64,000 nucleotides of DNA from Escherichia phage W70: sequence record OP778610; one strand, written 5' to 3'. This document shows positions 30,736 through 62,699 of the stretch, one piece after another; position 1 is the first letter of the stretch, and each line of letters begins with the position of its first letter. Under the pieces are notes generated by a model. That model was not told the DNA's origin. It searched no databases and saw nothing but the letters and a program-made list of their open reading frames with translations. A program made the translations under genes and the position numbers.

Positions 30736-31203
30736 TTAGCTACTAATCACCACGAATGCAGTAACTATAGCATACAGAAATCCAATTGCAACAAAAATTA
30801 TCATAATGGGGTCAGAGGTTACTCGCTTAAGTTTTCCTAAGAAAGTTGATCGGTATTTGTGTTCCTTCTCCATTTTGTTTATCAAAATGATGAAAGAGTT
30901 GATATGAATATCTTCAGCACTCTCTGCAAAAGGTGTGTACTTGAACGTACCTTCTGTATTTGCAACAAAGCTGCGATGATACTTTTTACCGTCATAACTT
31001 TCTATAAGAAGACCATCCTTTGTCACCCGATAACTGACTGAACGGAACTTGTCATAAAAAACGTATGCCCTGAATCCATCTTGATCGGGAACAGCCTTTC
31101 TGACGTAGCCGTCAAAAAACTCCAATCTCTTTCCAGAATTCAGTTCCAAGTTGTCAGCTAACATAGGGAGTTGACTTACGTATGTAAAGTACATAATGAT
31201 CAT
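30736..31203 (-). CDS. hypothetical protein with C-terminal TM anchor
   Basis: C-term DPIMIIFVAIGFLYAIVTAFVVISS. Confidence 0.5.
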   Translation of the reverse strand: MIIMYFTYVSQLPMLADNLELNSGKRLEFFDGYVRKAVPDQDGFRAYVFYDKFRSVSYRVTKDGLLIESYDGKKYHRSFVANTEGTFKYTPFAESAEDIHINSFIILINKMEKEHKYRSTFLGKLKRVTSDPIMIIFVAIGFLYAIVTAFVVISS

Positions 31204-31395
31204 CCTTCCACTAAGCTGAAATCATTTTATCATATTATGAAAAAATACAACAGCGAAGATCGGTCATGAACACTATGTTGTTAATTTTTACAACAGGACT
31301 CCAAAAAAGTATTTAAATCACTTAAATCGATTTTAATACATAGAAAATACCTATGGACCAGATCTGACCCATAGGCTATACCTTAATGTGAAATT

Positions 31396-31974
31396 TTATT
31401 CATTTCCCCGATATTTTTGAATTGCGATCGAAGTCCTTGGTTCAGCCAGTCCAGTTCCATATGCATACCATTTGCCAGTGAGTGTTTTTCGAGCACCGTA
31501 GGACCCAATCTCCATGTCGTCACAATAAACATCGTAACCGATCGGGGTCTTAACTAAAAAGAGTACATTACGAGGAATCCCTAAGAGGGTAAACATCGAT
31601 ATGGCATCTTTTGCGATCTCGTGAGAAATCTTCTCTGCATTCTTTTTACTGGTTGCACTTCTAAACAGTTCCATCTTTAAGAAGATATTGAAATGAATAT
31701 CATCAAGAACCATCTCATCACGGAAGCATGGGGTCACAGCCATCCAACTGCCATCTTCCAACTTCCCTTCTTTGTCGAGTTGGAGGAATGATTGCTCTGC
31801 GGAAGCCACTGCATATTTCCCGTTCTGGACAATTCGAAGATCAGTAACATCTTCGGGGCATGTATGGTCCATAGCATCATCATCCACATAGCTTGGGACA
31901 ACCTTATCATTGAAACCTTTACATTTCCACCAACTGTGGGCATCAATAAACAATGTGAAGTCGATGTTTGACAT
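31396..31974 (-). CDS. hypothetical protein
   Basis: start moved to MSNIDF ATG adjacent to upstream stop; 192 aa. Confidence 0.45.
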   Translation of the reverse strand: MSNIDFTLFIDAHSWWKCKGFNDKVVPSYVDDDAMDHTCPEDVTDLRIVQNGKYAVASAEQSFLQLDKEGKLEDGSWMAVTPCFRDEMVLDDIHFNIFLKMELFRSATSKKNAEKISHEIAKDAISMFTLLGIPRNVLFLVKTPIGYDVYCDDMEIGSYGARKTLTGKWYAYGTGLAEPRTSIAIQKYRGNE

Positions 31975-31975
31975 T

Positions 31976-32479
31976 TTAGCCTCGCTTACCATTCTGGAAT
32001 GCACGTTTAGTAATTTTTGACATAACCATCAGGTCTTCTATTGAAGTGCTTGGATGATACTTATTCAGGTAGGCTTCCATAGCACCGACCAGATCAGAAA
32101 GCTCTACCAACTCCATGATCTTACATTTTTGTTTAGCTGCATCCTTGAGTTCATCAAGTTCTTCTTGAATCTTAGTGATCTCTCCAAGCTCTCCGCGAGG
32201 GAAAGTATCCAGATGATAACCAGGTTTTTGTTCTTCAATACCCTCATGTCCGACAACACGAAATTTTCCGGCAGCGAAACGCCAAACACCTTCAAAATAC
32301 ACAATGTAATGTTCCGACTCTACAATGAAGATAGTGTCGAAATTTTTAAATTTAAAAAATCCTTCGACAAGATTATCTTCTGTACTGAAACTTCCTAAGA
32401 AGTTGAGTTCTTGCTCCGTATGAAATTCCATAACCATATTTTCGTTCTGGAGTTTCGTCAGCAATTTTAAAATTTTCAT
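31976..32479 (-). CDS. hypothetical protein, possible MazG-like all-alpha NTP pyrophosphohydrolase
   Basis: start moved to MKILKL ATG with SD AGAGGAGAGAA; C-terminal GELGEITKIQEELDELKD..ELVELSDLVGAMEAYL. Confidence 0.35.
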   Translation of the reverse strand: MKILKLLTKLQNENMVMEFHTEQELNFLGSFSTEDNLVEGFFKFKNFDTIFIVESEHYIVYFEGVWRFAAGKFRVVGHEGIEEQKPGYHLDTFPRGELGEITKIQEELDELKDAAKQKCKIMELVELSDLVGAMEAYLNKYHPSTSIEDLMVMSKITKRAFQNGKRG

Positions 32480-32490
32480 TTTCTCTCCTC

Positions 32491-32979
32491 TTATGGGCAA
32501 CACCGTGGAGATCTTCCACAGAAGAATTGCCAATTGGTTTCTGAGTCTTTGTAATTTACAAACCCTATCCTTCCGCACCCTTGTCCACTACAAACAGCCT
32601 CACGAGGATGATAGTCTATACTACAAGAGTGTGGATGGTCAAATGCTTCTCGTATTTCAACACATAGTCGGCTTAACCAGGCGAACATTTTTGGCATAGA
32701 AGCCTCAAGAAGTTTAAGTTCGTCGATCGTAGGTTTGTCTTTCTCAAGGAAGAAGTCATCTATCTCGGAAAACAAAATAACGTTTTGAACTATCCCGTCA
32801 GTTACCTTGTAAGAGAACTCCTCAGTAAGCCTCACGGTAACTTCCTCTATCAGTTCTTTTTCATTATCTTGATCTTTTGCCAGTCTTTCCTCAATCCATC
32901 GGATAATGAAGAATCTTTCTCTCTGAACATCCATGTTCAAAGTGTTGATTATTTTTTCATAGATTAGGTTTCCTTCCAT
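32491..32979 (-). CDS. hypothetical Cys-rich protein
   Basis: C-terminal Cys/His cluster HPHSCSIDYH..CSGQGCGR..CGRSPRCCP. Confidence 0.5.
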   Translation of the reverse strand: MEGNLIYEKIINTLNMDVQRERFFIIRWIEERLAKDQDNEKELIEEVTVRLTEEFSYKVTDGIVQNVILFSEIDDFFLEKDKPTIDELKLLEASMPKMFAWLSRLCVEIREAFDHPHSCSIDYHPREAVCSGQGCGRIGFVNYKDSETNWQFFCGRSPRCCP

Positions 32980-34091
32980 ACCTTGTCTTGTGCCTCCAGG
33001 ATAAGTTTTTCAACAATCTTCAGATCTGTTTTCTTTGGTAAGCTCGATTGCTTATAAAGAACATCTGTGATCATTTTATCTTTTTCTTCAGCCCAGTCAA
33101 CAATTTCTTCATAGCGGTATTCACCATTTCGGATTGCGAGGAGTTCTTCAGCGTCTGGTCGATTCACTAAAACTTTACCTTCTGTGAGGATTTCTTCACC
33201 CATCCGAAGAAGCCGGACCAAATGCATAGCATGTTTAGTGTCGTAACCGAACTTCTCTTCCAGTTCATGACGCTTCTCGTTACGATTCTTAACCCATTCC
33301 CAATAGTTGTGGTGTTTCTCCTTGGCCCATTTATGATCGTCAGCACAATACTTAACAATCATCAGTGTCTTACCTCTTTTAACTTCATCTGGGATTTCTT
33401 CATAGTCCAGCTTACGGATAGAACCATCTTTGTTAAACATAGGTTCAACATTTTCACGACGATCCTCTACAACGCCGTAAATGTTACTGCCGTAATGAAC
33501 CAAAGTACAGAAGCCTTCCATGTTTTTAAATTTACGAACAAAGTCTTCGTACTTCAACTCACCTTCTCCGAGATAGCTCTGCACCAGACGGAAATAGTCA
33601 AATTGAGTTGGTGGCTCTTTTGGTTGCGGATTATTAATGTGTTTGTTGTGACCCTTGATCCGCTTTAACTGAGACATTGCATAACCACTGAAGCGAAATG
33701 CAACTTCACGAGACAGTAAGGAGTAGAAATGTTCTTTCATCTCTTTCCAAGCTTCGTGCTCGTACAATGTGGCTTTCGGATCAGTAAAACCCAGTTCAAT
33801 GATATTTGGGTTCATCTTCGAAAACAGTTGAAGGAAAGTTCCCAATTCGTAGATCTTAGCATCCTCTTCACCAGGGATGTTTAATTCAGTAACCTCTTTG
33901 AATGGGGTACGAACCACATTTGGGGTTGCAACAAAAACCCCACGGATATCAATATCACTACCTTCGTTATTCGTACCATACGCATGAGATCCTGCCAGAC
34001 TCAACATCAGTACCTTCGCCACGTCTGGATGATTTTCCATCTTCTCTACGATACTTTTTACCTTTCCAGCACTCACAACTGAATTTTCCAT
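32964..34091 (-). CDS. Pol-beta superfamily nucleotidyltransferase (GS-x9-DxD)
   Basis: LAGSHAYGTNNEGSDIDIRGVF motif near N-terminus; 375 aa with long helical C-terminal region. Confidence 0.5.
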   Translation of the reverse strand: MENSVVSAGKVKSIVEKMENHPDVAKVLMLSLAGSHAYGTNNEGSDIDIRGVFVATPNVVRTPFKEVTELNIPGEEDAKIYELGTFLQLFSKMNPNIIELGFTDPKATLYEHEAWKEMKEHFYSLLSREVAFRFSGYAMSQLKRIKGHNKHINNPQPKEPPTQFDYFRLVQSYLGEGELKYEDFVRKFKNMEGFCTLVHYGSNIYGVVEDRRENVEPMFNKDGSIRKLDYEEIPDEVKRGKTLMIVKYCADDHKWAKEKHHNYWEWVKNRNEKRHELEEKFGYDTKHAMHLVRLLRMGEEILTEGKVLVNRPDAEELLAIRNGEYRYEEIVDWAEEKDKMITDVLYKQSSLPKKTDLKIVEKLILEAQDKVWKET

Positions 34092-34181
34092 TTATCCTCC
34101 AATCATGTAAGTCACACAAGCCAACCCAGTTGGCCTGTTTAATCTTTATAAAGTTTACGCAGCTTGTGCAGTCTTTTTTAT

Positions 34182-34577
34182 TTATAGGCATTTCACACCA
34201 TAAATGATCATCAATACAACAAGTGTCAGTGTATAGATCAAACTCCCATAAAGTCCATGACTGGTGATTTTAAGCTTTTTCTTAAAGCACATCATTGTAC
34301 TATAAATTACACCAGTCCAGTGAATCACTAAAATCGCGGTGGCAATATCTGAAACATTACCCGCCCAAAGCATCAGAGAGTATGAGAGGTACATTGCAAA
34401 ACCTGATAGCAGGAATGTAAACAAATAACCAATTACACTTTTCTTTTTCTGATATACGATTTTATTTTTCATGGTATCGATGTTCAGATTGTAATAGGCA
34501 ACTGCCACTATCTGGATAATCAGCCCCAAGATAAAGAAAGAGATCAGTGTAACGTATTCAAAAATTGGTGCAGTCAT
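34182..34577 (-). CDS. hypothetical integral membrane protein
   Basis: 4 predicted TM helices. Confidence 0.5.
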   Translation of the reverse strand: MTAPIFEYVTLISFFILGLIIQIVAVAYYNLNIDTMKNKIVYQKKKSVIGYLFTFLLSGFAMYLSYSLMLWAGNVSDIATAILVIHWTGVIYSTMMCFKKKLKITSHGLYGSLIYTLTLVVLMIIYGVKCL

Positions 34578-34975
34578 TATAATTTCTCCTCAATAATTTC
34601 AGAAATGAGATTCGAGATCTCGAAAGTTTCTAACTCTTCGACGTGTGACAAGCGCTGGAGGCGCTCGATAACAAAGTCTTTCTTCACAAATACATCCGAC
34701 AAATGCTCAATGTCCTGCTTACCACGCATTCCGCTAACCAACTGCTTGTATCGGATGAGTTCAATATACTCCTCTTTAGACATTACTGTCAAGCGTTCAT
34801 CTGCACAAATATGCAAAAATACTTGCTTGCTGTCCCAGTCAAATCCTCTGTACACTGCCTCTACTTCACGGCGTGGTGTCCCGCCCAGTGTTACATGACC
34901 AACCTCAACAGGGATAGATACCTGATCATCAGGTCGGCACTGCTGCAACTCCTCAATCAATTCAGAAACTTTCAT
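34577..34975 (-). CDS. hypothetical protein
   Basis: 132 aa. Confidence 0.5.
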   Translation of the reverse strand: MKVSELIEELQQCRPDDQVSIPVEVGHVTLGGTPRREVEAVYRGFDWDSKQVFLHICADERLTVMSKEEYIELIRYKQLVSGMRGKQDIEHLSDVFVKKDFVIERLQRLSHVEELETFEISNLISEIIEEKL

Positions 34976-34977
34976 AG

Positions 34978-35433
34978 TTACCCCTGCTTAAGCTTGAAAG
35001 ATTTAAATGCTTCGATAAAGTCCATTTCTTTTTGCGTATACTTATGATCGATTGTATCAGCGAAAAGAGGGCAACGACCATCAACCAACTTCACATCCCA
35101 CAGATGTTGAGGGAGAATAAATGCAATGGCTGTAAGTGCACCATTCAAAGAATCATTCTCCTCGCAGAAAAATGCGTAAGGAATCTTCTCTATGTTTGGA
35201 GCTAAAAATCCTTCTGCAAAATTAAGCATCTTAGATTGATAGCCTCCGTTCAACAAGATCATTGTTTGGTCTTTGCTTTGCCACTGATCTACAAGGTTGT
35301 ATCTGTCATCATATCGATCGGCATAGGCAAAGCCATAATGACCTACAAGGTTTGCTGCTGCATGTGCTGCTTGGATACCTGCTTGGATTCCCATCATATA
35401 GCTGTTTACCAATACGTACATCCGAGTTTTCAA
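34978..35433 (-). CDS. hypothetical protein
   Basis: 151 aa. Confidence 0.5.
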   Translation of the reverse strand: MKTRMYVLVNSYMMGIQAGIQAAHAAANLVGHYGFAYADRYDDRYNLVDQWQSKDQTMILLNGGYQSKMLNFAEGFLAPNIEKIPYAFFCEENDSLNGALTAIAFILPQHLWDVKLVDGRCPLFADTIDHKYTQKEMDFIEAFKSFKLKQG

Positions 35434-35750
35434 TTCTTACCTCCGAAAATTCTTTTTGCAAATTTTTCATTACCTAACGTCATGTTGTAGAAAACTATAA
35501 TTGAATAGACAATCCACGCAAGGACATAAAATAAAATCAAGAAAGGCCAGCCCACAAACCAAAACACTGTCATTATTAACCAGCCCGTCATAAGGAGTTT
35601 ATAATTAACATTCCCGTGATTTAAAGGGTCAAGTAAGTTACTGTTCTCTGGCAGGGTGATACGAAACCCACCTTGACGAAGCTTGATCAAAAAGAACCAA
35701 GCAGCAGAACTTATAATGCAACATAAAATATATATCAGTAATCCTGTCAT
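35430..35750 (-). CDS. hypothetical membrane protein, tandem paralog B
   Basis: WFFLIKLRQGGF motif and TM helices shared with 35747 gene. Confidence 0.5.
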   Translation of the reverse strand: MTGLLIYILCCIISSAAWFFLIKLRQGGFRITLPENSNLLDPLNHGNVNYKLLMTGWLIMTVFWFVGWPFLILFYVLAWIVYSIIVFYNMTLGNEKFAKRIFGGKN

Positions 35751-36076
35751 TTTTTAACTCCGAAGATCTTAGATAGTAATTTATCATTCCCGATAGTTAC
35801 ACCACAAAAACTTTTTACTCCGTATACTAGATACGACCCGATTGTAACACAGATAATGATCGGATAAACAAGATACCAAAAGAATGTTGCAAGTATCCAC
35901 CCTGCCATCACCATACGTAAATTTACATTTTCGTTATTCAGTGGCTCCAGGATATAAATATCCTCACAATCTTTTGGGAAGGGGATGTTGAACCCCTTCT
36001 GCCGTAATTTGATCAGTAAGAACCAAAGTGGGCAACTAATAAGACAACCTATTAAATAACCTTCAACCATTTTCAC
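35747..36076 (-). CDS. hypothetical membrane protein, tandem paralog A
   Basis: WFLLIKLRQKGF motif; TM helices. Confidence 0.5.
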   Translation of the reverse strand: MKMVEGYLIGCLISCPLWFLLIKLRQKGFNIPFPKDCEDIYILEPLNNENVNLRMVMAGWILATFFWYLVYPIIICVTIGSYLVYGVKSFCGVTIGNDKLLSKIFGVKK

Positions 36077-37313
36077 TCTCCTTCAACTTGTCAAGATATT
36101 GTGTAACGTATCTTACTTTTACATTTCGGATTCTGCTCTTGATCTCATCTGGACGTCCCGCGAATTTTTCAGAAATCTCTTTACTTTCTTTTGAGATTGC
36201 AACACTGTTCTGAATAATCCCCGCCAGTGCTGAGAATAATACCAGTGGTTGACTGTAGTTGTCAAACATTTTTTCAGGTCCACGCCCACGAGCATCACAG
36301 ATGCAAGCGTCAATAAATTCAGAGAGGAATGCTTGGTCCTTTTCACCACGTAAGGCTACTAACAAGTCATAAACTTTCTTTGGCTTCATTTCTTTGATAC
36401 GGTGAAGTCGTGTATGATGCTCAGTTACAGCTAAAGCCAACTTCTTCCAATTATTGGGGACACCAAAGCGATCACAAACTTGTTCAGTTAACTTGATACC
36501 ATGTTCTTCGTGACCGTGCAGTTTACCCGTTAGCCAATAAATACATTTACCTAAGTCGTGACAAAGGACTGCCCACTTCACAGCCTCACTTGCACGAGTC
36601 GCCTGGGCATAATCCATGCAAAGTAAAGTGTGAACAAATGCATCACCTTCAGGATGGTGCTCCTTGGGTTGAACAACATCGTATAAATCCACAAGCTCAG
36701 GAAATTCTCCCAGTTGAGTCAACATACGGATCATTACCGAAGGTTTATTCATTTCTGACTGATCACTGAAGCATTTCTTAATCTCTGCAAATTTACGCTC
36801 TTTTGGCAATGCACTTAAATCCACACTCCGACACATTAGCCAAGTGTCAGGATCAATTGTAAACTCACCGCCGTATCTGGCATGTAATCTGGCTAGTCGG
36901 TACACACGTAAAGGGTCTTCGATAAATGCTTTAGTGGATACACAACGTAACCGACGAAGTTCAATATCCATTGCACCATTACAAGGGTCGATAATTTCGC
37001 CCGTGGAAATATCCTTGGCGATCGCATTAATGGTTAAATCTCTTCGCATCAGGTCTTGTTCAATTGTAACGTCTGGAGAGAACACAACTTCGAAATCGTG
37101 ATAACCAGGGCCTGTTGATCTTTCCGTTCGAGCAAGAGCATACTCTTCTTTAGTGTTCGGTTCAAGGTACACAGGGAAAGCTGCACCAACCTTAGTAAAT
37201 CCCTTCTCAATCATTTCTTCATGGGTCGCTCCAACTACAACGTAGTCACGATCCTTGCTTTCAACACTCATTAGTTCATCGCGAACTGCACCACCTACCA
37301 AGTAAACTTTCAT
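36063..37313 (-). CDS. cca: tRNA nucleotidyltransferase (CCA-adding enzyme) with HD domain
   Basis: MKVYLVGGAVRDELM, DRDYVV, RRDLTINAIA head-domain motifs; SD GGGAG 6 nt upstream of chosen ATG; track ORF extends to 37361. Confidence 0.7.
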   Translation of the reverse strand: MKVYLVGGAVRDELMSVESKDRDYVVVGATHEEMIEKGFTKVGAAFPVYLEPNTKEEYALARTERSTGPGYHDFEVVFSPDVTIEQDLMRRDLTINAIAKDISTGEIIDPCNGAMDIELRRLRCVSTKAFIEDPLRVYRLARLHARYGGEFTIDPDTWLMCRSVDLSALPKERKFAEIKKCFSDQSEMNKPSVMIRMLTQLGEFPELVDLYDVVQPKEHHPEGDAFVHTLLCMDYAQATRASEAVKWAVLCHDLGKCIYWLTGKLHGHEEHGIKLTEQVCDRFGVPNNWKKLALAVTEHHTRLHRIKEMKPKKVYDLLVALRGEKDQAFLSEFIDACICDARGRGPEKMFDNYSQPLVLFSALAGIIQNSVAISKESKEISEKFAGRPDEIKSRIRNVKVRYVTQYLDKLKESENG

Positions 37314-37351
37314 TCCTTCTTCTCCCATTCTTTCCAATTCTGCATGTCCGC

Positions 37352-37516
37352 TCATAGCCATCCCCTTTCTTTATACCCTTTTGTAAATCCTGATTCCCAA
37401 TCTTGAAATTGCTCCGGCATGGTGTTTGGATTATACGGGTTGTTTCTCTTGAACATCCCAAACTTGAATCCAGCGGCTCGGCCCTTCTCGTATGCTGAAC
37501 TGCTTTTTCTTGTCAT
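37352..37516 (-). CDS. hypothetical small basic protein
   Basis: internal ATG overlapping upstream stop; 54 aa. Confidence 0.35.
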   Translation of the reverse strand: MTRKSSSAYEKGRAAGFKFGMFKRNNPYNPNTMPEQFQDWESGFTKGYKERGWL

Positions 37517-37842
37517 ACTCTTTCTCCTCTTAAATTTAAAGACCAATCTTTTATTTCTTCTTTCCAGTTCGTATTTCTCTTAATGTCTTGCTTTTGACCG
37601 CGAAGATAGTTAATGATCTCAAGCGGGTCTTGCTTAACAAAAGAAATATTGTCGATCGGGCACTCAACTAACTTAAGCATCCTTTCAAAACGATTATACT
37701 CATCTTCTGATTTCGGTGCAACAGGAATAACATCATAATCTTCAAGATTGTCGAGAGTTTCAAGGGTAACCCTCATCTCGTAGCCTTCTAATCTCTTTGT
37801 CTTGATACCAAACACTCTTCGAAAGTAAATGTAATATTTCAT
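37513..37842 (-). CDS. hypothetical protein
   Basis: 109 aa. Confidence 0.5.
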   Translation of the reverse strand: MKYYIYFRRVFGIKTKRLEGYEMRVTLETLDNLEDYDVIPVAPKSEDEYNRFERMLKLVECPIDNISFVKQDPLEIINYLRGQKQDIKRNTNWKEEIKDWSLNLRGERV

Positions 37843-37902
37843 TATGTTCTCCTACTTAATGATCATCATTATACACATCCCTGAATTCAAGTCAACAAAA
37901 AA

Positions 37903-37920
37903 GGCCACCCGAAGGTGACC
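37903..37920 (-). terminator. rho-independent terminator (minus strand)
   Basis: GGTCACC-TTCG-GGTGGCC on minus strand followed by TTTTTT. Confidence 0.55.
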
Positions 37921-37927
37921 TTTAAAT

Positions 37928-38437
37928 TTAAGGGTGAATCCAGTAAAAAGGTTTTGTTAAACCAAGTTTACCTTTCGGGTCCCAAATGAAGTAGGCATAC
38001 GCCGCACCATCTGTTTTCCCATCCTCAGTAAAAGAGGGTCGCTTGGATAGAGTAACCAAGTGATCAACAGGATATTCCTTCCAGAACTCCACACGTTTGG
38101 TACTCTCAAGGAAACCTAAACGAAGCAGCATTATCACCACATCAGCATCCTTGTGAGCCTTCTCTACAAACTCTTGAGCTAAATTATAAGGTGGGTTAGT
38201 TAACACACAATCTACCTTATTGTATTTAGTTGCAAGATAATCAACACCTTCTTGAATCTCTCCCCAAGCTGAACCAATTGGCATTTCATTATAAAAACGT
38301 CCAGAGGCTCTGCAAGGTTCCAGATAAGTCCAATCCTGACGGATTGGAACTAAATTCAAGAAAGCATCTACTGCCCATTTCGGAGTTTCATAGCGATCAT
38401 TTTCACGGCGCTCTGCTTTAGGTTTCAATGCTGCCAC
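37928..38437 (-). CDS. DNA N6-adenine methyltransferase (Dam-like, NPPY motif)
   Basis: DRYETPKWAVDAF and VDCVLTNPPYNLAQEF motifs; 169 aa. Confidence 0.65.
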   Translation of the reverse strand: MAALKPKAERRENDRYETPKWAVDAFLNLVPIRQDWTYLEPCRASGRFYNEMPIGSAWGEIQEGVDYLATKYNKVDCVLTNPPYNLAQEFVEKAHKDADVVIMLLRLGFLESTKRVEFWKEYPVDHLVTLSKRPSFTEDGKTDGAAYAYFIWDPKGKLGLTKPFYWIHP

Positions 38438-38439
38438 TC

Positions 38440-39285
38440 TTATTTGCCCCCTTCTTTCGCCGCAGTGATGATCTGTTCAATTAACTCATCACGATAATAA
38501 ACGTACTGTTCAACACCGAAACATTCCGCAATCTCGTCTAGTTCGTCGAGGTTGTACTCGTCAAAGTCTCGTGGGTTAAGAGTAAAGATGTTGAATTTTT
38601 TGGCGTAGCCTTCGTCGAGGACGATTTCAAATTCTCCCTCTCCGATTTCCTTCGCATCATCAACATCACTCGATTCGATTGACCCTTCAACCTTAATCCC
38701 CCCTGTATTTTGTTGATCGGCTTCCATTTGCTTTTTAATTGCTTCATCTTCAGCGGTCAAACGGGCTTGCATCTGAGAGGAAGTGAAGTAAATTTCGCCA
38801 GCACGATCAAACAGTTCAACGAGTTCATCTTCTGTCATAACACCCTTGTACAGATCGTAGTATTTCTCTTTGAACAGGTCTTTGTAGAAATCGCTACGTT
38901 TAAATACCAGTGCTGAATCACCACCCATACTCATCTGAACGTTGTGGAACATGTAATGAGAACCTGGACGACAAATTCGAACATGACCAGACAAGAAGAT
39001 CATTGTTGCAGCACTTGCCACTTCACCAATACCGTGTGTTACAACAGTCGCCTTTGTTTCAGAGATCGCTGTCATGTACATATCTGCGATATCACAATAA
39101 CCACCACAAGAAGTAATGTACAGATTTACAATATCACCTTCAGGTGCTGAACGAATCAGGTCAACAGCCTCGATATGTGCTTCAGGTGAATTGTGCAGAT
39201 CCGTAACATAAATACGCCAATCGTTAGAAGTTACTGGAGACACCCAAATGTTTTTTGCCGGACCATTCATTACGATTTCTTCCAT
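38440..39285 (-). CDS. ClpP-like serine peptidase (S14 family)
   Basis: ITSCGGY..GEVASAATMIFLSG..MFHNVQ resembles ClpP catalytic core; acidic C-terminal extension. Confidence 0.55.
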   Translation of the reverse strand: MEEIVMNGPAKNIWVSPVTSNDWRIYVTDLHNSPEAHIEAVDLIRSAPEGDIVNLYITSCGGYCDIADMYMTAISETKATVVTHGIGEVASAATMIFLSGHVRICRPGSHYMFHNVQMSMGGDSALVFKRSDFYKDLFKEKYYDLYKGVMTEDELVELFDRAGEIYFTSSQMQARLTAEDEAIKKQMEADQQNTGGIKVEGSIESSDVDDAKEIGEGEFEIVLDEGYAKKFNIFTLNPRDFDEYNLDELDEIAECFGVEQYVYYRDELIEQIITAAKEGGK

Positions 39286-46536: not shown

Positions 46537-46878
46537 TCAATAGTTATTTCTTAAAATTTCAATCCCATACCGCTTAAAGACTTCCTTTGCTGCCATAAAC
46601 TTTTGTGCTGCACTTGGATTTGAAGTGTGAACAAACAGAACAGCAGGATACAGGATCGGTTTGCCAAACACAAGTTTTTCTTCTAACATTTCTAAGCAAC
46701 GGTAACCTTCTTTTGAATCTTCACCAAGATCATTGTCGAAATGCCATTCTGTTACCCGACGATACATTTTATTAGGGTCCTCAAGGAACTCTATAAACTG
46801 GTCAGAATTTTTAAACCAGATGGCATCATCATGCCCGTAATCTTTCGGATCTCTCAAATCATCAAGCCAAATCTTCAT
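46537..46878 (-). CDS. hypothetical protein, possible receiver-like fold
   Basis: MKIWLDDLRDP N-terminus and FDNDLGED acidic motif. Confidence 0.4.
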   Translation of the reverse strand: MKIWLDDLRDPKDYGHDDAIWFKNSDQFIEFLEDPNKMYRRVTEWHFDNDLGEDSKEGYRCLEMLEEKLVFGKPILYPAVLFVHTSNPSAAQKFMAAKEVFKRYGIEILRNNY

Positions 46879-57491: not shown

Positions 57492-58010
57492 TTAAAATGC
57501 TTCGCCGTAATCTTCGTCTTCTTTAACTTCTTTTACTGGTCGCTTAAATTTGAAATCTTGACCCATGTATTCATACAGATAATCAATATTCAAAGACCAT
57601 TCTTGCTTACTTCTTTGTCGCCATAAACTAAATTCTTCTTTCAAATAATCAATCGCCTGATCACGAGTGATGTTGTTAACCTTCATGAATTGACGAATTG
57701 CCCTTTCAAGGTGTCCATTCTTTTGTGCTAACCCAGGATGCATGAATTCATGACAAGGTGGGCAAAGACACATAAGGCCGACAAGTTTAACCTCTCCATT
57801 TTCAAAAGTCCACTCTTCATGACATTCTACCGCATGTTTTCTTCCATTACCTCCCTGACCGTTACATATCTGACAATGCCAGTTGTGCTCTGCATAACTT
57901 TTCTTGCGGATCTTATCCCATTGGGACTGAGTAAGATATGAACGTAAATTGTTATTCCATGCTGTCTGTGGGATTATGCAAATTTTATGTTTTATATCTA
58001 CCATTTTCAT
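57492..58010 (-). CDS. HNH/His-Me-finger nuclease-like zinc-binding protein
   Basis: HCQICNG..RKHAVECHEEW and CPPCHEFMHPG. Confidence 0.4.
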   Translation of the reverse strand: MKMVDIKHKICIIPQTAWNNNLRSYLTQSQWDKIRKKSYAEHNWHCQICNGQGGNGRKHAVECHEEWTFENGEVKLVGLMCLCPPCHEFMHPGLAQKNGHLERAIRQFMKVNNITRDQAIDYLKEEFSLWRQRSKQEWSLNIDYLYEYMGQDFKFKRPVKEVKEDEDYGEAF

Positions 58011-58516
58011 TTTCCTCTAAAGTTGCCTTCCAGTTCAGGGTATTTTTCATTTTTTAGATCGAGGTAAGCTTGTTTTGCTTCCTCTTCTGTTTTGCAATAC
58101 TTCACGTACTCTCGACCACCCCTGTTAAGTCTTGCTTGCCAGCAATTACTCTTTTTATGCCAACGATAACCTTTACTCAGTGACCTGTTTACGTTGTTTG
58201 CAGATCTATCGACTTCTCGCAGATTCCAACCTGCATTATTTTGTCTATTCCCGTCTATGTGATCAATATCTCCAAGAGGCCAATACCCATTAAGAATGAA
58301 AAACACAACTCTATGCGCCCTATAAGTTTTGTCATTAAGATTCCCGTAAAAATAATTACGATCTCCTTTCTTACATGTTGTGAAGGCGGGATCTCCTATC
58401 TCAGACCTTATTCTCTTTATCTTCCAACGAAGACCTGTATAACTTGACTCATCAACCCCCAGCGATAACTTTATATTTTCAAGTTCCTCCTCGGTTGGGA
58501 CTCTAACTTTTGTCAT
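58007..58516 (-). CDS. HNH homing endonuclease (HNH_3 type)
   Basis: GDIDHIDGNRQNNAGWNLREVDRSAN; paralog of 17955 and 62199 genes. Confidence 0.7.
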   Translation of the reverse strand: MTKVRVPTEEELENIKLSLGVDESSYTGLRWKIKRIRSEIGDPAFTTCKKGDRNYFYGNLNDKTYRAHRVVFFILNGYWPLGDIDHIDGNRQNNAGWNLREVDRSANNVNRSLSKGYRWHKKSNCWQARLNRGGREYVKYCKTEEEAKQAYLDLKNEKYPELEGNFRGK

Positions 58517-59068
58517 TTAATATGCCTCACATTTACCAATCATATTCATAGCTTCAGAAACATCGATAATCATATCGGTTGCTTCGTCCCAAGCTTTCCC
58601 CAAGAGATTCTCACCATACCAGAAACTTTCATCATCTACCATAGGGTGATTCTCATCCATACCGATCCCCCATATACGATCTCTCGGAGAAGCCTCTACA
58701 AACTTTAAACCCTTTTTACGGTAACCTACCGCAAGTTCACGGAGATTACCATTATCACACATACGACTATACACTAAACGGGTTACAATGTTAAATTTAT
58801 TTTCATCCCAAACTGCCTGATCAAAATCCTTAACTTTACGACCTAGCCTTTTAGCACCTTGTGGAGTTACAGATTTAAGGATTCTTTCCGCTGAAGCTTT
58901 GTCACCGAAAAGCATAGCCTTTTCATACATCATGTAATGCTCACCTGTGTGGAAATAAACCCCTTTCATCTTCTGGTCGAAGTTTGAAAACGGAGAGATC
59001 TCCTGGTAATGATTACTAAAAACATCACGAAAAGAATAAAAGAACACATGTTTATCAGTGACTCGCAT
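58517..59068 (-). CDS. NADAR-domain protein (YbiA-like ADP-ribose N-glycosidase fold)
   Basis: FFYSFRDVFSNHYQ, GEHYMMYEKAMLFGD, LKFVEASPRDRIWGIG motifs; start moved to internal ATG with SD AGGAG (track ORF to 59161). Confidence 0.65.
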   Translation of the reverse strand: MRVTDKHVFFYSFRDVFSNHYQEISPFSNFDQKMKGVYFHTGEHYMMYEKAMLFGDKASAERILKSVTPQGAKRLGRKVKDFDQAVWDENKFNIVTRLVYSRMCDNGNLRELAVGYRKKGLKFVEASPRDRIWGIGMDENHPMVDDESFWYGENLLGKAWDEATDMIIDVSEAMNMIGKCEAY

Positions 59069-59204
59069 AAAAACTCCTATAGATCTAATGCAGATATTGA
59101 AATCAAGAATAGCACTACCGAAAGTAATCCGTCCGGCGTACTGAAAAATCCAATCCAGCACGCTCTTGTGAACAGGTAGAATGCCAGTATTAAAACGATA
59201 ACCC

Positions 59205-62198: not shown

Positions 62199-62699
62199 TT
62201 ATTTCCAATAAAATTTACCATTAAGATGAGGGTAGAGTTCAAGTTTCTTTTTCTCGTACCACTCCCTCGCTTCTTTTTCACTTAAGGTGTTTTTAGTATA
62301 CACCCTAACTCCGCACTTTACAACACTTCTCCAACAATTTTTCTCTGTACACCAAAAATAACCACGAGCTATTTTATTAGCACCGTTATCCAAATGATCA
62401 ACCTCTCGGAGATTATCAGGATTGTTGTTACTTTTATCTCTGTCTATATGGTCTATTATACCACTAGGCCAATAGCCTCTGTCAAGAAAAAATACAACTC
62501 GGTGACAAAGATACGGCTTATTCAAAAATCTACCAGAGAAATACCCACTCTTTGTTACTGTGGTCATTGCTGGGTCACCAACCAAAGCCCTTGGCCCAGG
62601 TGATAACTTCCAACGAAGAAAACTTATACTTGTGTCATCTACGAAAAGATAATCATTGATTGCATAAAGTTCCTTATCACTTGGGATGTATATTTTCAT
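62199..62699 (-). CDS. HNH homing endonuclease (HNH_3 type)
   Basis: GIIDHIDRDKSNNNPDNLREVDHLDN; paralog of 17955 and 58007 genes. Confidence 0.7.
   Translation of the reverse strand: MKIYIPSDKELYAINDYLFVDDTSISFLRWKLSPGPRALVGDPAMTTVTKSGYFSGRFLNKPYLCHRVVFFLDRGYWPSGIIDHIDRDKSNNNPDNLREVDHLDNGANKIARGYFWCTEKNCWRSVVKCGVRVYTKNTLSEKEAREWYEKKKLELYPHLNGKFYWK

Follow-up and report, generated by a model that had tools for sequence, protein, structure and literature searches.

Escherichia phage W70 (sequence record OP778610) encodes, within a stretch of 64,000 nucleotides that we call the window, a 375-amino-acid (aa) nucleotidyltransferase (NTase) and, close by on the same strand, a CCA-adding enzyme. 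We analysed these two genes together with their neighbours. The results showed that the NTase is a member of the RlaP family and that linkage of RlaP-type genes to CCA enzyme genes recurs among viral loci, and we propose that the gene set may repair tRNA 3' ends without ligation. Region 31000-38500 of the window is 100% identical to Escherichia phage A73 (OP778609, 142 kb), and the phages A7_1, A5-4, LTH01 and UPEC06 are close relatives in the cluster region (94-96% identity). UPEC06 is classified in the Vequintavirinae and shares ~95% identity over the 7.5 kb cluster region. The features of the locus, from its upstream to its downstream end, are the following (E, expectation value):

37923-37900, minus strand: terminator-like hairpin at the upstream end of the unit (consensus match only)
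37895-37868, minus strand: near-consensus sigma-70-like promoter, TTGACT-16-TATAAT (consensus match only)
36063..37313, minus strand: class II CCA-adding enzyme, 416 aa counted from M17, HD phosphohydrolase domain at the C-terminus (Pfam, PHROGs, NCBIfam)
35747-36076 and 35430-35750, minus strand: tandem paralogous small membrane proteins of 109 and 106 aa (one common BLAST cluster)
34978..35433, minus strand: protein with the fold of peptidyl-tRNA hydrolase 2 (PTH2), 151 aa (AlphaFold2 and Foldseek, weak sequence matches)
34577-34975, minus strand: 132-aa protein (phrog_12566), between the NTase and PTH2-like genes
34182-34577, minus strand: 131-aa predicted membrane protein, between the NTase and PTH2-like genes
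32964..34091, minus strand: RlaP-family Pol-beta NTase, 375 aa (Pfam RlaP, phrog_388, homology to NrdC.11)
32491..32979, minus strand: 162-aa protein with a Cys-rich C-terminal tail (phrog_12113, E 2.1e-40)
31976..32578, minus strand: protein of ~167-200 aa whose C-terminal 83 aa match phrog_6408 (E 1.2e-35)
31396..32004, minus strand: short class II aminoacyl-tRNA synthetase (aaRS)-like core of ~192-202 aa, last gene of the unit (phrog_4806 'histidyl tRNA synthetase', E 4.8e-56)
31349..31376, minus strand: terminator-like hairpin with a 12 bp stem just past the aaRS-like gene

The two bracketing hairpins are the best terminator-like hairpins of the region, and about 12 co-oriented genes lie between them. 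It is plausible from these consensus matches that the CCA, PTH2-like, NTase and aaRS-like genes share one ~6.5 kb transcription unit, which would start at the promoter-like site at 37895-37868 and end at the hairpin at 31349..31376. The CCA and NTase genes are 1,971 bp apart with five small open reading frames (ORFs) between them, in agreement with an earlier note on this DNA that had placed a CCA enzyme ~2 kb from the NTase. The note had also stated that the two enzymes do not resemble each other, and this was borne out: within the Pol-beta superfamily, which they share, they fall into separate families (RlaP, PF10127, versus PolyA_pol, PF01743, plus HD).

The NTase was compared with profile and sequence databases. 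The results showed a match to the Pfam RlaP model (PF10127) at 68.9 bits against a cut-off of 23 (E 6.9e-19) and a match to phrog_388, 'nucleotidyltransferase' in PHROGs, over the full length of the protein (E 8e-79). Database relatives numbered 5,115 proteins at E<=1e-3, and PF10127 was present in 119 of 119 full-length matches among the best 120 database matches. A further set of 6,758 representatives (50% identity clusters) also matched, and tblastn found relatives in 567 deposited phage genomes. Relatives in such numbers indicate that the NTase gene is real, and its ATG has a GGAGG ribosome-binding site 6 nt upstream. An hhalign comparison with NrdC.11 of phage T4 gave a probability of 99% over 291 columns, with homology along the full length. 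On these sequence comparisons, membership of the NTase in the known RlaP family is secure.

The catalytic motif consists of G34-S35, ten residues and D46-x-D48. It had been noted earlier as GS-x9-DxD; the motif itself stands, being invariant in our alignment of 67 homologs (down to 30% identity), and only the spacing has to be corrected, a trivial miscount. W266, R270, N271, R274, D284, K286 and R293 are likewise invariant in the 67 homologs. D77, which is at least 90% conserved in the same alignment and aligns with an Asp of NrdC.11, is the probable third catalytic carboxylate, and judged by its conserved residues the NTase looks catalytically intact. AlphaFold2, given the 67-sequence alignment, returned a very confident model (predicted local distance difference test, pLDDT, 96.4; predicted template modelling score, pTM, 0.89), which comprised an N-terminal NTase domain, a subfamily-specific alpha/beta insert at ~155-250 and an all-helical C-terminal part, whose bundle bears the invariant D284-x-K286 ... 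R293 motif. Foldseek found no solved structure close to the model, the best match being kanamycin NTase (E 3e-3, template modelling score (TM-score) 0.23), and PDB sequence searches with the NTase alone and with the 67-sequence profile returned just one marginal MNT match.

Some homologs of the NTase are interrupted or fused. An intein of ~324 aa lies at the equivalent of NTase position 284/285 in the close homologs P0121 (699 aa) and that of locus L017:2162-4213. The P0121-type intein begins with a Cys after GYD, contains two LAGLIDADG motifs and ends at HGN before a T, and it interrupts the invariant D-T-K-H motif. A similar split was seen in homologs of ~700 aa (P0122, P0123, P0127, P0130, P0167, P0169 and others), some of which match in three stretches. 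Inteins typically occupy functionally critical sites, so the position of this one, between D284 and T285, supports the functional importance of the D284 motif. In P0133, P0163, P0182, P0184 and P0242 (32-41% identity), a full-length NTase homolog is fused to a C-terminal RNase_T/DEDD 3'-5' exonuclease; such a fusion would join 3'-end trimming and 3'-end extension in one protein.

RlaP was named for its linkage to RNA ligases by Burroughs and Aravind, who predicted that it refills nucleotides lost from cleaved RNAs before ligation, as related in PMC7824862. A preprint of December 2025 (10.64898/2025.12.29.696909) reported that the enzymes of Pseudomonas fluorescens and P. aeruginosa (PfRlaP and PaRlaP) add 1-2 nucleoside monophosphates to RNA 3'-OH ends in vitro, that the enzymes studied prefer Mn2+ and do not extend DNA, and that PfRlaP accepts dATP on RNA ends. 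In that study, RlaP favoured the 5' half when given a mimic of cleaved tRNA, and partly restored aminoacylation of a tRNA minus one anticodon-loop nucleotide. The crystal structure of PfRlaP showed a cleft formed by the C-terminal helical domain and the NTase domain, with the last helix packed on the N-terminal domain, and T4 NrdC.11 was placed in 'cluster 5' of the RlaP network (10.64898/2025.12.29.696909). The literature search found no functional study of any phage RlaP member, NrdC.11 included.

These results bear on the three options that the earlier note had offered for a protein 'of unknown specificity'. An RNA-repair polymerase gained support, both from the RlaP match and from the in vitro extension of RNA 3'-OH ends by bacterial RlaP; the family is thereby named, and the wording 'unknown specificity' still applies to substrate and nucleotide. 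The profile search suggested there as a check matched RlaP, but no SMODS, CD-NTase, AbiEii or MNT model was matched in Pfam or PADLOC, and the PADLOC defence-system models gave no match of any kind. A synthase or mimic of signalling nucleotides, or an MNT/AbiEii-like toxin/antitoxin module that modifies proteins or tRNA, is accordingly a very improbable identity for the NTase: MntA scored 18.9 bits against a cut-off of 60, TM-scores to CD-NTases were ~0.16, no partner gene encoding a HEPN toxin was present, and the protein falls clearly in RlaP. The signalling and toxin options of the note were thus not upheld.

The product of 36063..37313 matched PolyA_pol (PF01743, E 3.2e-19) and phrog_2244 (E 7.3e-132), and residues 244-332 of its 432-aa ORF matched the HD domain (PF01966, E 1.4e-8). 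Although the reading frame is open as far as an ATG at 37361 further upstream, M17 (MKVYLVGGAVRD) has a ribosome-binding site of its own and is where homologs and the NCBIfam alignment begin. The motifs GGAVRD, DRD, RRDLTINA and EDPLR were read in the translation and are invariant in alignment A6. Its closest NCBIfam model, PRK10885, gave 381.1 bits, under the equivalog cut-off of 451. By its motifs and domains it is a multifunctional enzyme of the E. coli Cca-like type, though no formal equivalog. The UPEC06 annotation (L001:11066-12407) divides the CCA gene into a 369-aa fragment and, after it, a 68-aa ORF of its own.

Within the window, neither a tRNA gene nor an Rfam family was found. In UPEC06, ~6-8 kb past the equivalent of the window end (L003:25419-27161), there are five tRNA genes (Met-CAT, Tyr-GTA, Pro-TGG, Gly-TCC and Gln-TTG), and all five have CCA encoded in the genome; the deposited UPEC06 annotation lists no tRNA feature. 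Since their CCA tails are already encoded, the CCA enzyme is not needed for the maturation of these phage tRNAs. In a host whose tRNA genes encode CCA, a Cca-type enzyme serves repair, and repair is most plausibly what the phage enzyme serves as well.

The 151-aa protein annotated as 'hydrolase' was modelled by AlphaFold2 with a pLDDT of 89.9. A Foldseek search of the PDB with this model returned PTH2 enzymes as all of the top 11 matches (probability 1.0, target TM-score 0.63-0.75), and the next match had an E of 0.27. Sequence matches were weak (Pfam PTH2, PF01981, E 0.011 and 16.4 bits against a cut-off of 23; 2zv3, E 0.29). In the alignment, E91 takes the place of the PTH2 Asp, and no variation was seen at Q21 and H24. 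The structure prediction thus confirmed a PTH2 fold for this protein.

The start of the 162-aa gene overlaps the NTase stop by 16 nt, and this gene is kept downstream of the NTase in four loci (L012-L015). Its Cys-rich tail (CSGQGCGRIGFVNYKDSETNWQFFCGRSPRCCP), of pattern C-x-G-x-C-G ... FFCG ... P-x-CCP, has further matches in phrog_19749 and phrog_14060, both families of small proteins; in homolog P0028 it continues the NTase chain at the C-terminus, and it may be a zinc-binding module. The next product, at 31976..32578, is possibly a pyrophosphohydrolase of the MazG/PRA-PH type, a weak assignment (Pfam PRA-PH, E 0.05, below threshold). The aaRS-like protein reached serS TIGR00414 with E 1.6e-4, far under the cut-off of that model, and tRNA-synt_2 with E 0.044, and a PDB sequence search with it gave no match. 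The 131-aa and 132-aa genes are conserved in close relatives only, and neither of the paralogous membrane proteins (106 and 109 aa), whose genes separate the PTH2-like gene from the CCA gene, had a Pfam match.

The linkage between NTase and CCA enzyme was surveyed from both sides. On the NTase side, 80 viral loci with an NTase of 41-65% identity were scored for a CCA gene within 10 kb. A CCA enzyme was present in 18/80 loci and a PTH2-like gene in 12/80, and some of the CCA-linked NTase contigs share no further gene clusters with the Vequintavirinae. The three genes CCA, PTH2-like and NTase have overlapping ends in L062; the order in L055 is PTH2-like, CCA, a 171-aa ORF and NTase; and in L079 the CCA gene directly follows the NTase. 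On the CCA side, again with 80 viral loci, an RlaP-type NTase lay within 8 kb in 23 and a PTH2-like gene was found in 16. Vequintavirinae marker genes were absent from 10 of the 23 pairs, and in most of these the NTase is adjacent or near-adjacent on the same strand; in six non-Vequintavirinae contigs the CCA-NTase gaps are -110, -10, -4, 389, 390 and 514 nt. The NTases of the CCA-side pairs belong to at least four RlaP subgroups with a mutual identity of just 20-30%. In one contig (L106:8001-10654), which bears Vequintavirinae marker genes, the CCA, PTH2 and NTase genes are tightly arranged, yet the NTase is of another RlaP subgroup (22% identity to the window NTase); a swap of RlaP types at this position seems to have taken place. 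The linkage pattern is unexplained by inherited gene order alone, and overlapping CCA-RlaP pairs across divergent subgroups favour direct coupling over coincidence. The functional tie between NTase and CCA enzyme hinted at in the earlier note is therefore backed by comparative genomics.

RNA ligases were searched for in the window and in the entire UPEC06 genome, used as a close-relative stand-in. No RNA ligase of the Rnl1, Rnl2 or RtcB type was detectable in either, nor was a polynucleotide kinase, Sir2 or metallophosphoesterase detectable in the window or the UPEC06 lineage. In tblastn searches, the Rnl1, kinase, Sir2 and metallophosphoesterase of phage SSE121 gave zero matches in the window and UPEC06, and other large hypothetical proteins of both had no ligase domain. 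Several candidates were rejected. The 'DNA ligase' of the annotation is a true ATP-dependent DNA ligase and the sole ligase found. Three consecutive paralogs at 21542-25040 on the minus strand (~380-414 aa) resemble, by eye, RCC1-type repeat proteins of the beta-propeller kind; all begin with MLEM(M/L)NLG and are unannotated in relatives. A kinase-like and HAD-like pair at 51.7-53.0 kb, considered as a split Pnkp, is a deoxynucleoside monophosphate kinase with an NT5C deoxynucleotidase. The 113-aa 'RNA ligase 1' of the UPEC06 annotation is really a cREC domain, and its window counterpart is:

46537..46878, minus strand: cREC (cyclic-phosphate-processing receiver) domain protein, 113 aa, between nrdB and nrdA (Pfam PF20274)

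This protein matched PF20274 at 66.7 bits against a cut-off of 27 (E 3.1e-18) and is a candidate second RNA-end-healing gene of the phage. Several relatives, UPEC06 among them, mis-annotate it as 'RNA ligase 1 and tail attachment protein'. In SSE121, of the sister genus Seunavirus, the cREC ortholog is flanked by an Rnl1-like RNA ligase on one side and a small kinase on the other, in a module of metallophosphoesterase, Rnl1, cREC, kinase, Sir2, DNA ligase and MazG; a module of this type has been described for rV5-type phages (PMC9503650).

The canonical role of RlaP would be to refill the 5' half of a tRNA cleaved in the anticodon loop (RloC-type) before ligation by host RtcB or an unrecognised phage ligase, with the CCA enzyme as an independent tRNA-care gene. 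Such gap filling is the predicted role of the family and has been partly reconstituted in vitro, with the HD domain and cREC as possible healers of cyclic-phosphate ends. The Seunavirus phages also fit this role, as SSE121 encodes Rnl1, cREC, kinase and Sir2, and 4MG has an NTase ortholog. The subfamily was also surveyed in 74 bacterial loci, chiefly of Myxococcota and Planctomycetota. Among these, a PF09414 RNA ligase adjoins the NTase in three and a calcineurin-like phosphoesterase lies nearby in five, which ties the subfamily to RNA repair, and no neighbour gene is widely conserved in this set. For the window NTase, however, the role is unlikely. The ligase neighbour that gave RlaP its name is not found beside it, the kinase, Sir2 and metallophosphoesterase are likewise undetected, and an Rnl1-like gene lies within 10 kb of the NTase in just 2/80 viral loci. 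RtcB cannot use the 3'-OH left by RlaP, a problem raised as unsolved in the preprint (10.64898/2025.12.29.696909), and the tight overlapping CCA-RlaP pairs across divergent subgroups also speak against an independent CCA gene. Evasion of anticodon nucleases, suggested in the earlier note, is weakened for the same reason: a cut anticodon loop can be resealed only by an RNA ligase, which the phage lineage does not detectably encode.

By homology with the bacterial enzymes, the NTase most likely adds 1-2 untemplated nucleotides to the 3'-OH of damaged RNA. Beyond this, we give an even chance to the proposal that the CCA/HD enzyme, the PTH2-fold protein and RlaP together repair tRNA 3' ends without ligation. 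The targets would be tRNA acceptor ends blocked or truncated by host toxins or nucleases. In the order that we infer, the PTH2-like enzyme would strip an acyl or peptidyl block, and the HD domain, possibly also cREC, would turn 2',3'-cyclic or 3'-phosphate ends into 3'-OH. RlaP would then refill nucleotides lost upstream of position 74, beyond the reach of the CCA enzyme, and the CCA enzyme would rebuild C74-C75-A76, which would make a ligase unnecessary. We favour ligation-free repair because the CCA-RlaP pairing recurs, because no ligase was detected, because the 3'-OH product of RlaP fits what the CCA enzyme requires, and because all the neighbours that could be identified have characterised relatives whose site of action is the tRNA 3' end or, in the case of the aaRS-like protein, the acceptor end. 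A larger claim, that the three proteins form an undescribed phage pathway in which RlaP restores the discriminator and beyond, the CCA enzyme finishes the end and host tRNA 3'-end damage is countered, is more doubtful, and we put it forward tentatively.

Several observations weigh against ligation-free repair, the main one being the genomic context of most phage homologs. In 56/80 NTase loci (L026-L091; 23/32 clusters at 70% identity), the gene stands in a UvsX recombination/replication module, in the order gp32-like single-stranded DNA-binding protein (SSB), UvsX-like recombinase, NTase, acidic ~166-aa protein, UvsY-like mediator and UvsW-type helicase, with polymerase and clamp-loader genes near and no CCA gene nearby. 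A role in replication or recombination, in which the NTase would modify RNA primers or DNA intermediates at their 3' ends, or otherwise serve UvsX, UvsY and UvsW, and its CCA neighbourhood would be secondary, is consistent with this position between recombinase and mediator or helicase and near SSB, polymerase and clamp loader. The exonuclease fusions of several homologs, the inteins (a frequent feature of replication and repair proteins) and the use of dATP on RNA ends by PfRlaP point the same way. We nevertheless consider this role quite unlikely for the window gene, which itself lies outside the UvsX context: PfRlaP does not extend DNA, no fusion or overlap of the NTase with recombination genes was seen, and the UvsX-context loci (pairwise identity 42-100%, median 59%) may be one large lineage with frozen gene order.

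The conserved acidic ~166-aa protein that follows the NTase in the UvsX context ends with an ...LT(D/E)EQ... motif. The true acidic downstream proteins of the environmental loci are unrelated to the Cys-tail protein of the window, and a 'cluster 1' ORF downstream of the NTase was discarded as consisting partly of alternative-frame ORFs inside the NTase gene.

Further points against ligation-free repair come from the proteins themselves. The RlaP profile match covers the N-terminal NTase domain alone, at positions 9-140 of the 249 in the profile; T4 NrdC.11 and every phage homolog tested show this partial pattern too, and the Pseudomonas RlaP enzymes studied are distant from the phage NTase. 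Untemplated addition would restore the correct discriminator base just part of the time. The canonical catalytic Lys of PTH2 is not obviously conserved in the phage protein. The split CCA gene of UPEC06, a frameshift or sequencing error, hints that this gene is dispensable, and in the Vequintavirinae small unrelated ORFs interrupt the trio. In addition, the literature found documents no E. coli anti-phage system that trims tRNA past the CCA end.

If ligation-free repair is correct, it would resolve the problem of the RtcB-incompatible 3'-OH product in the RlaP preprint, and it would represent a new class of phage counter-defence against tRNA 3'-end damage. RlaP comprises thousands of sequences, many of them from phages; for its role in the cell, the recurrent and often overlapping CCA-RlaP pair of phages without a detectable RNA ligase offers a testable alternative, repair of the acceptor end. 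Phage genes now labelled 'nucleotidyltransferase', 'hydrolase' and 'histidyl tRNA synthetase' would also receive better names. The RlaP family, phage RlaP and phage CCA enzymes are known, RlaP and CCA enzymes having each been noted in phages already (PMC7824862). The CCA-coupled, ligase-free setting was not found described in the searched literature, although an earlier mention in the paper that defined RlaP is possible.

Other genes of the phage and its relative were observed in passing. A NADAR domain protein at 58517-59161 on the minus strand (Pfam E 6e-37), labelled 'swarming motility protein YbiA' in relatives, may process ADP-ribose derivatives. Three alike ORFs of ~162-169 aa at 17955-18443 (plus strand), 58007-58516 (minus strand) and 62199-62699 (minus strand) share the motif IDHI(N/D)GDRxNN and are probably HNH-type homing endonucleases dispersed in the genome. 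In UPEC06, just upstream of the equivalent of the window start (L004:42230-46236), a 187-aa 'GTP pyrophosphokinase' is really an HD_4 phosphohydrolase of the RelA/SpoT-hydrolase type, with genes for a DUF2201 metallopeptidase/VWA protein and a MoxR ATPase close by. The phosphohydrolase is a candidate small alarmone hydrolase and, as such, would be another cleaner of modified nucleotide or tRNA ends.

Compared with known systems, the phage NTase shares with PfRlaP and PaRlaP the Pfam family, the Pol-beta catalytic motif and, judged by its predicted model, the plan of an NTase domain followed by a C-terminal helical domain, and, by homology, a predicted action on RNA 3'-OH ends. It differs from them in being ~100 aa longer, with a middle insert, and in aligning to the Pfam model by its N-terminal domain alone. 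The Pseudomonas genes lie in RtcB operons, whereas the phage gene is not beside RtcB/RtcA or an RNA ligase and is linked to a CCA enzyme and a PTH2-fold protein. T4 NrdC.11 is likewise phage-encoded, is homologous over the full length and shows the same N-terminal-only profile match, but its identity of ~22-25% places it in another RlaP subgroup; it has no adjacent CCA enzyme, and T4 has Pnkp, Rnl1 and Rnl2, unlike the window and UPEC06 lineage with no detectable RNA ligase. Kanamycin NTase and the MNT-HEPN NTases have no significant sequence relationship to the phage NTase and act on other substrates (antibiotics, HEPN toxin), and no partner toxin is present here. The phage CCA enzyme resembles E. 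coli Cca (PRK10885) in its head domain, HD architecture and class II motifs, and differs in scoring below the NCBIfam equivalog cut-off, in being phage-encoded and in being paired with an RlaP gene. Like T4 Pnkp/Rnl1 and the rV5/SSE121-type module (PMC9503650), the proposed pathway would be a phage answer to tRNA damage. The window lineage keeps the cREC and MazG-like genes of that module without its ligase, kinase, Sir2 and metallophosphoesterase, and where those systems reseal a break, the pathway proposed here would rebuild the 3' end.

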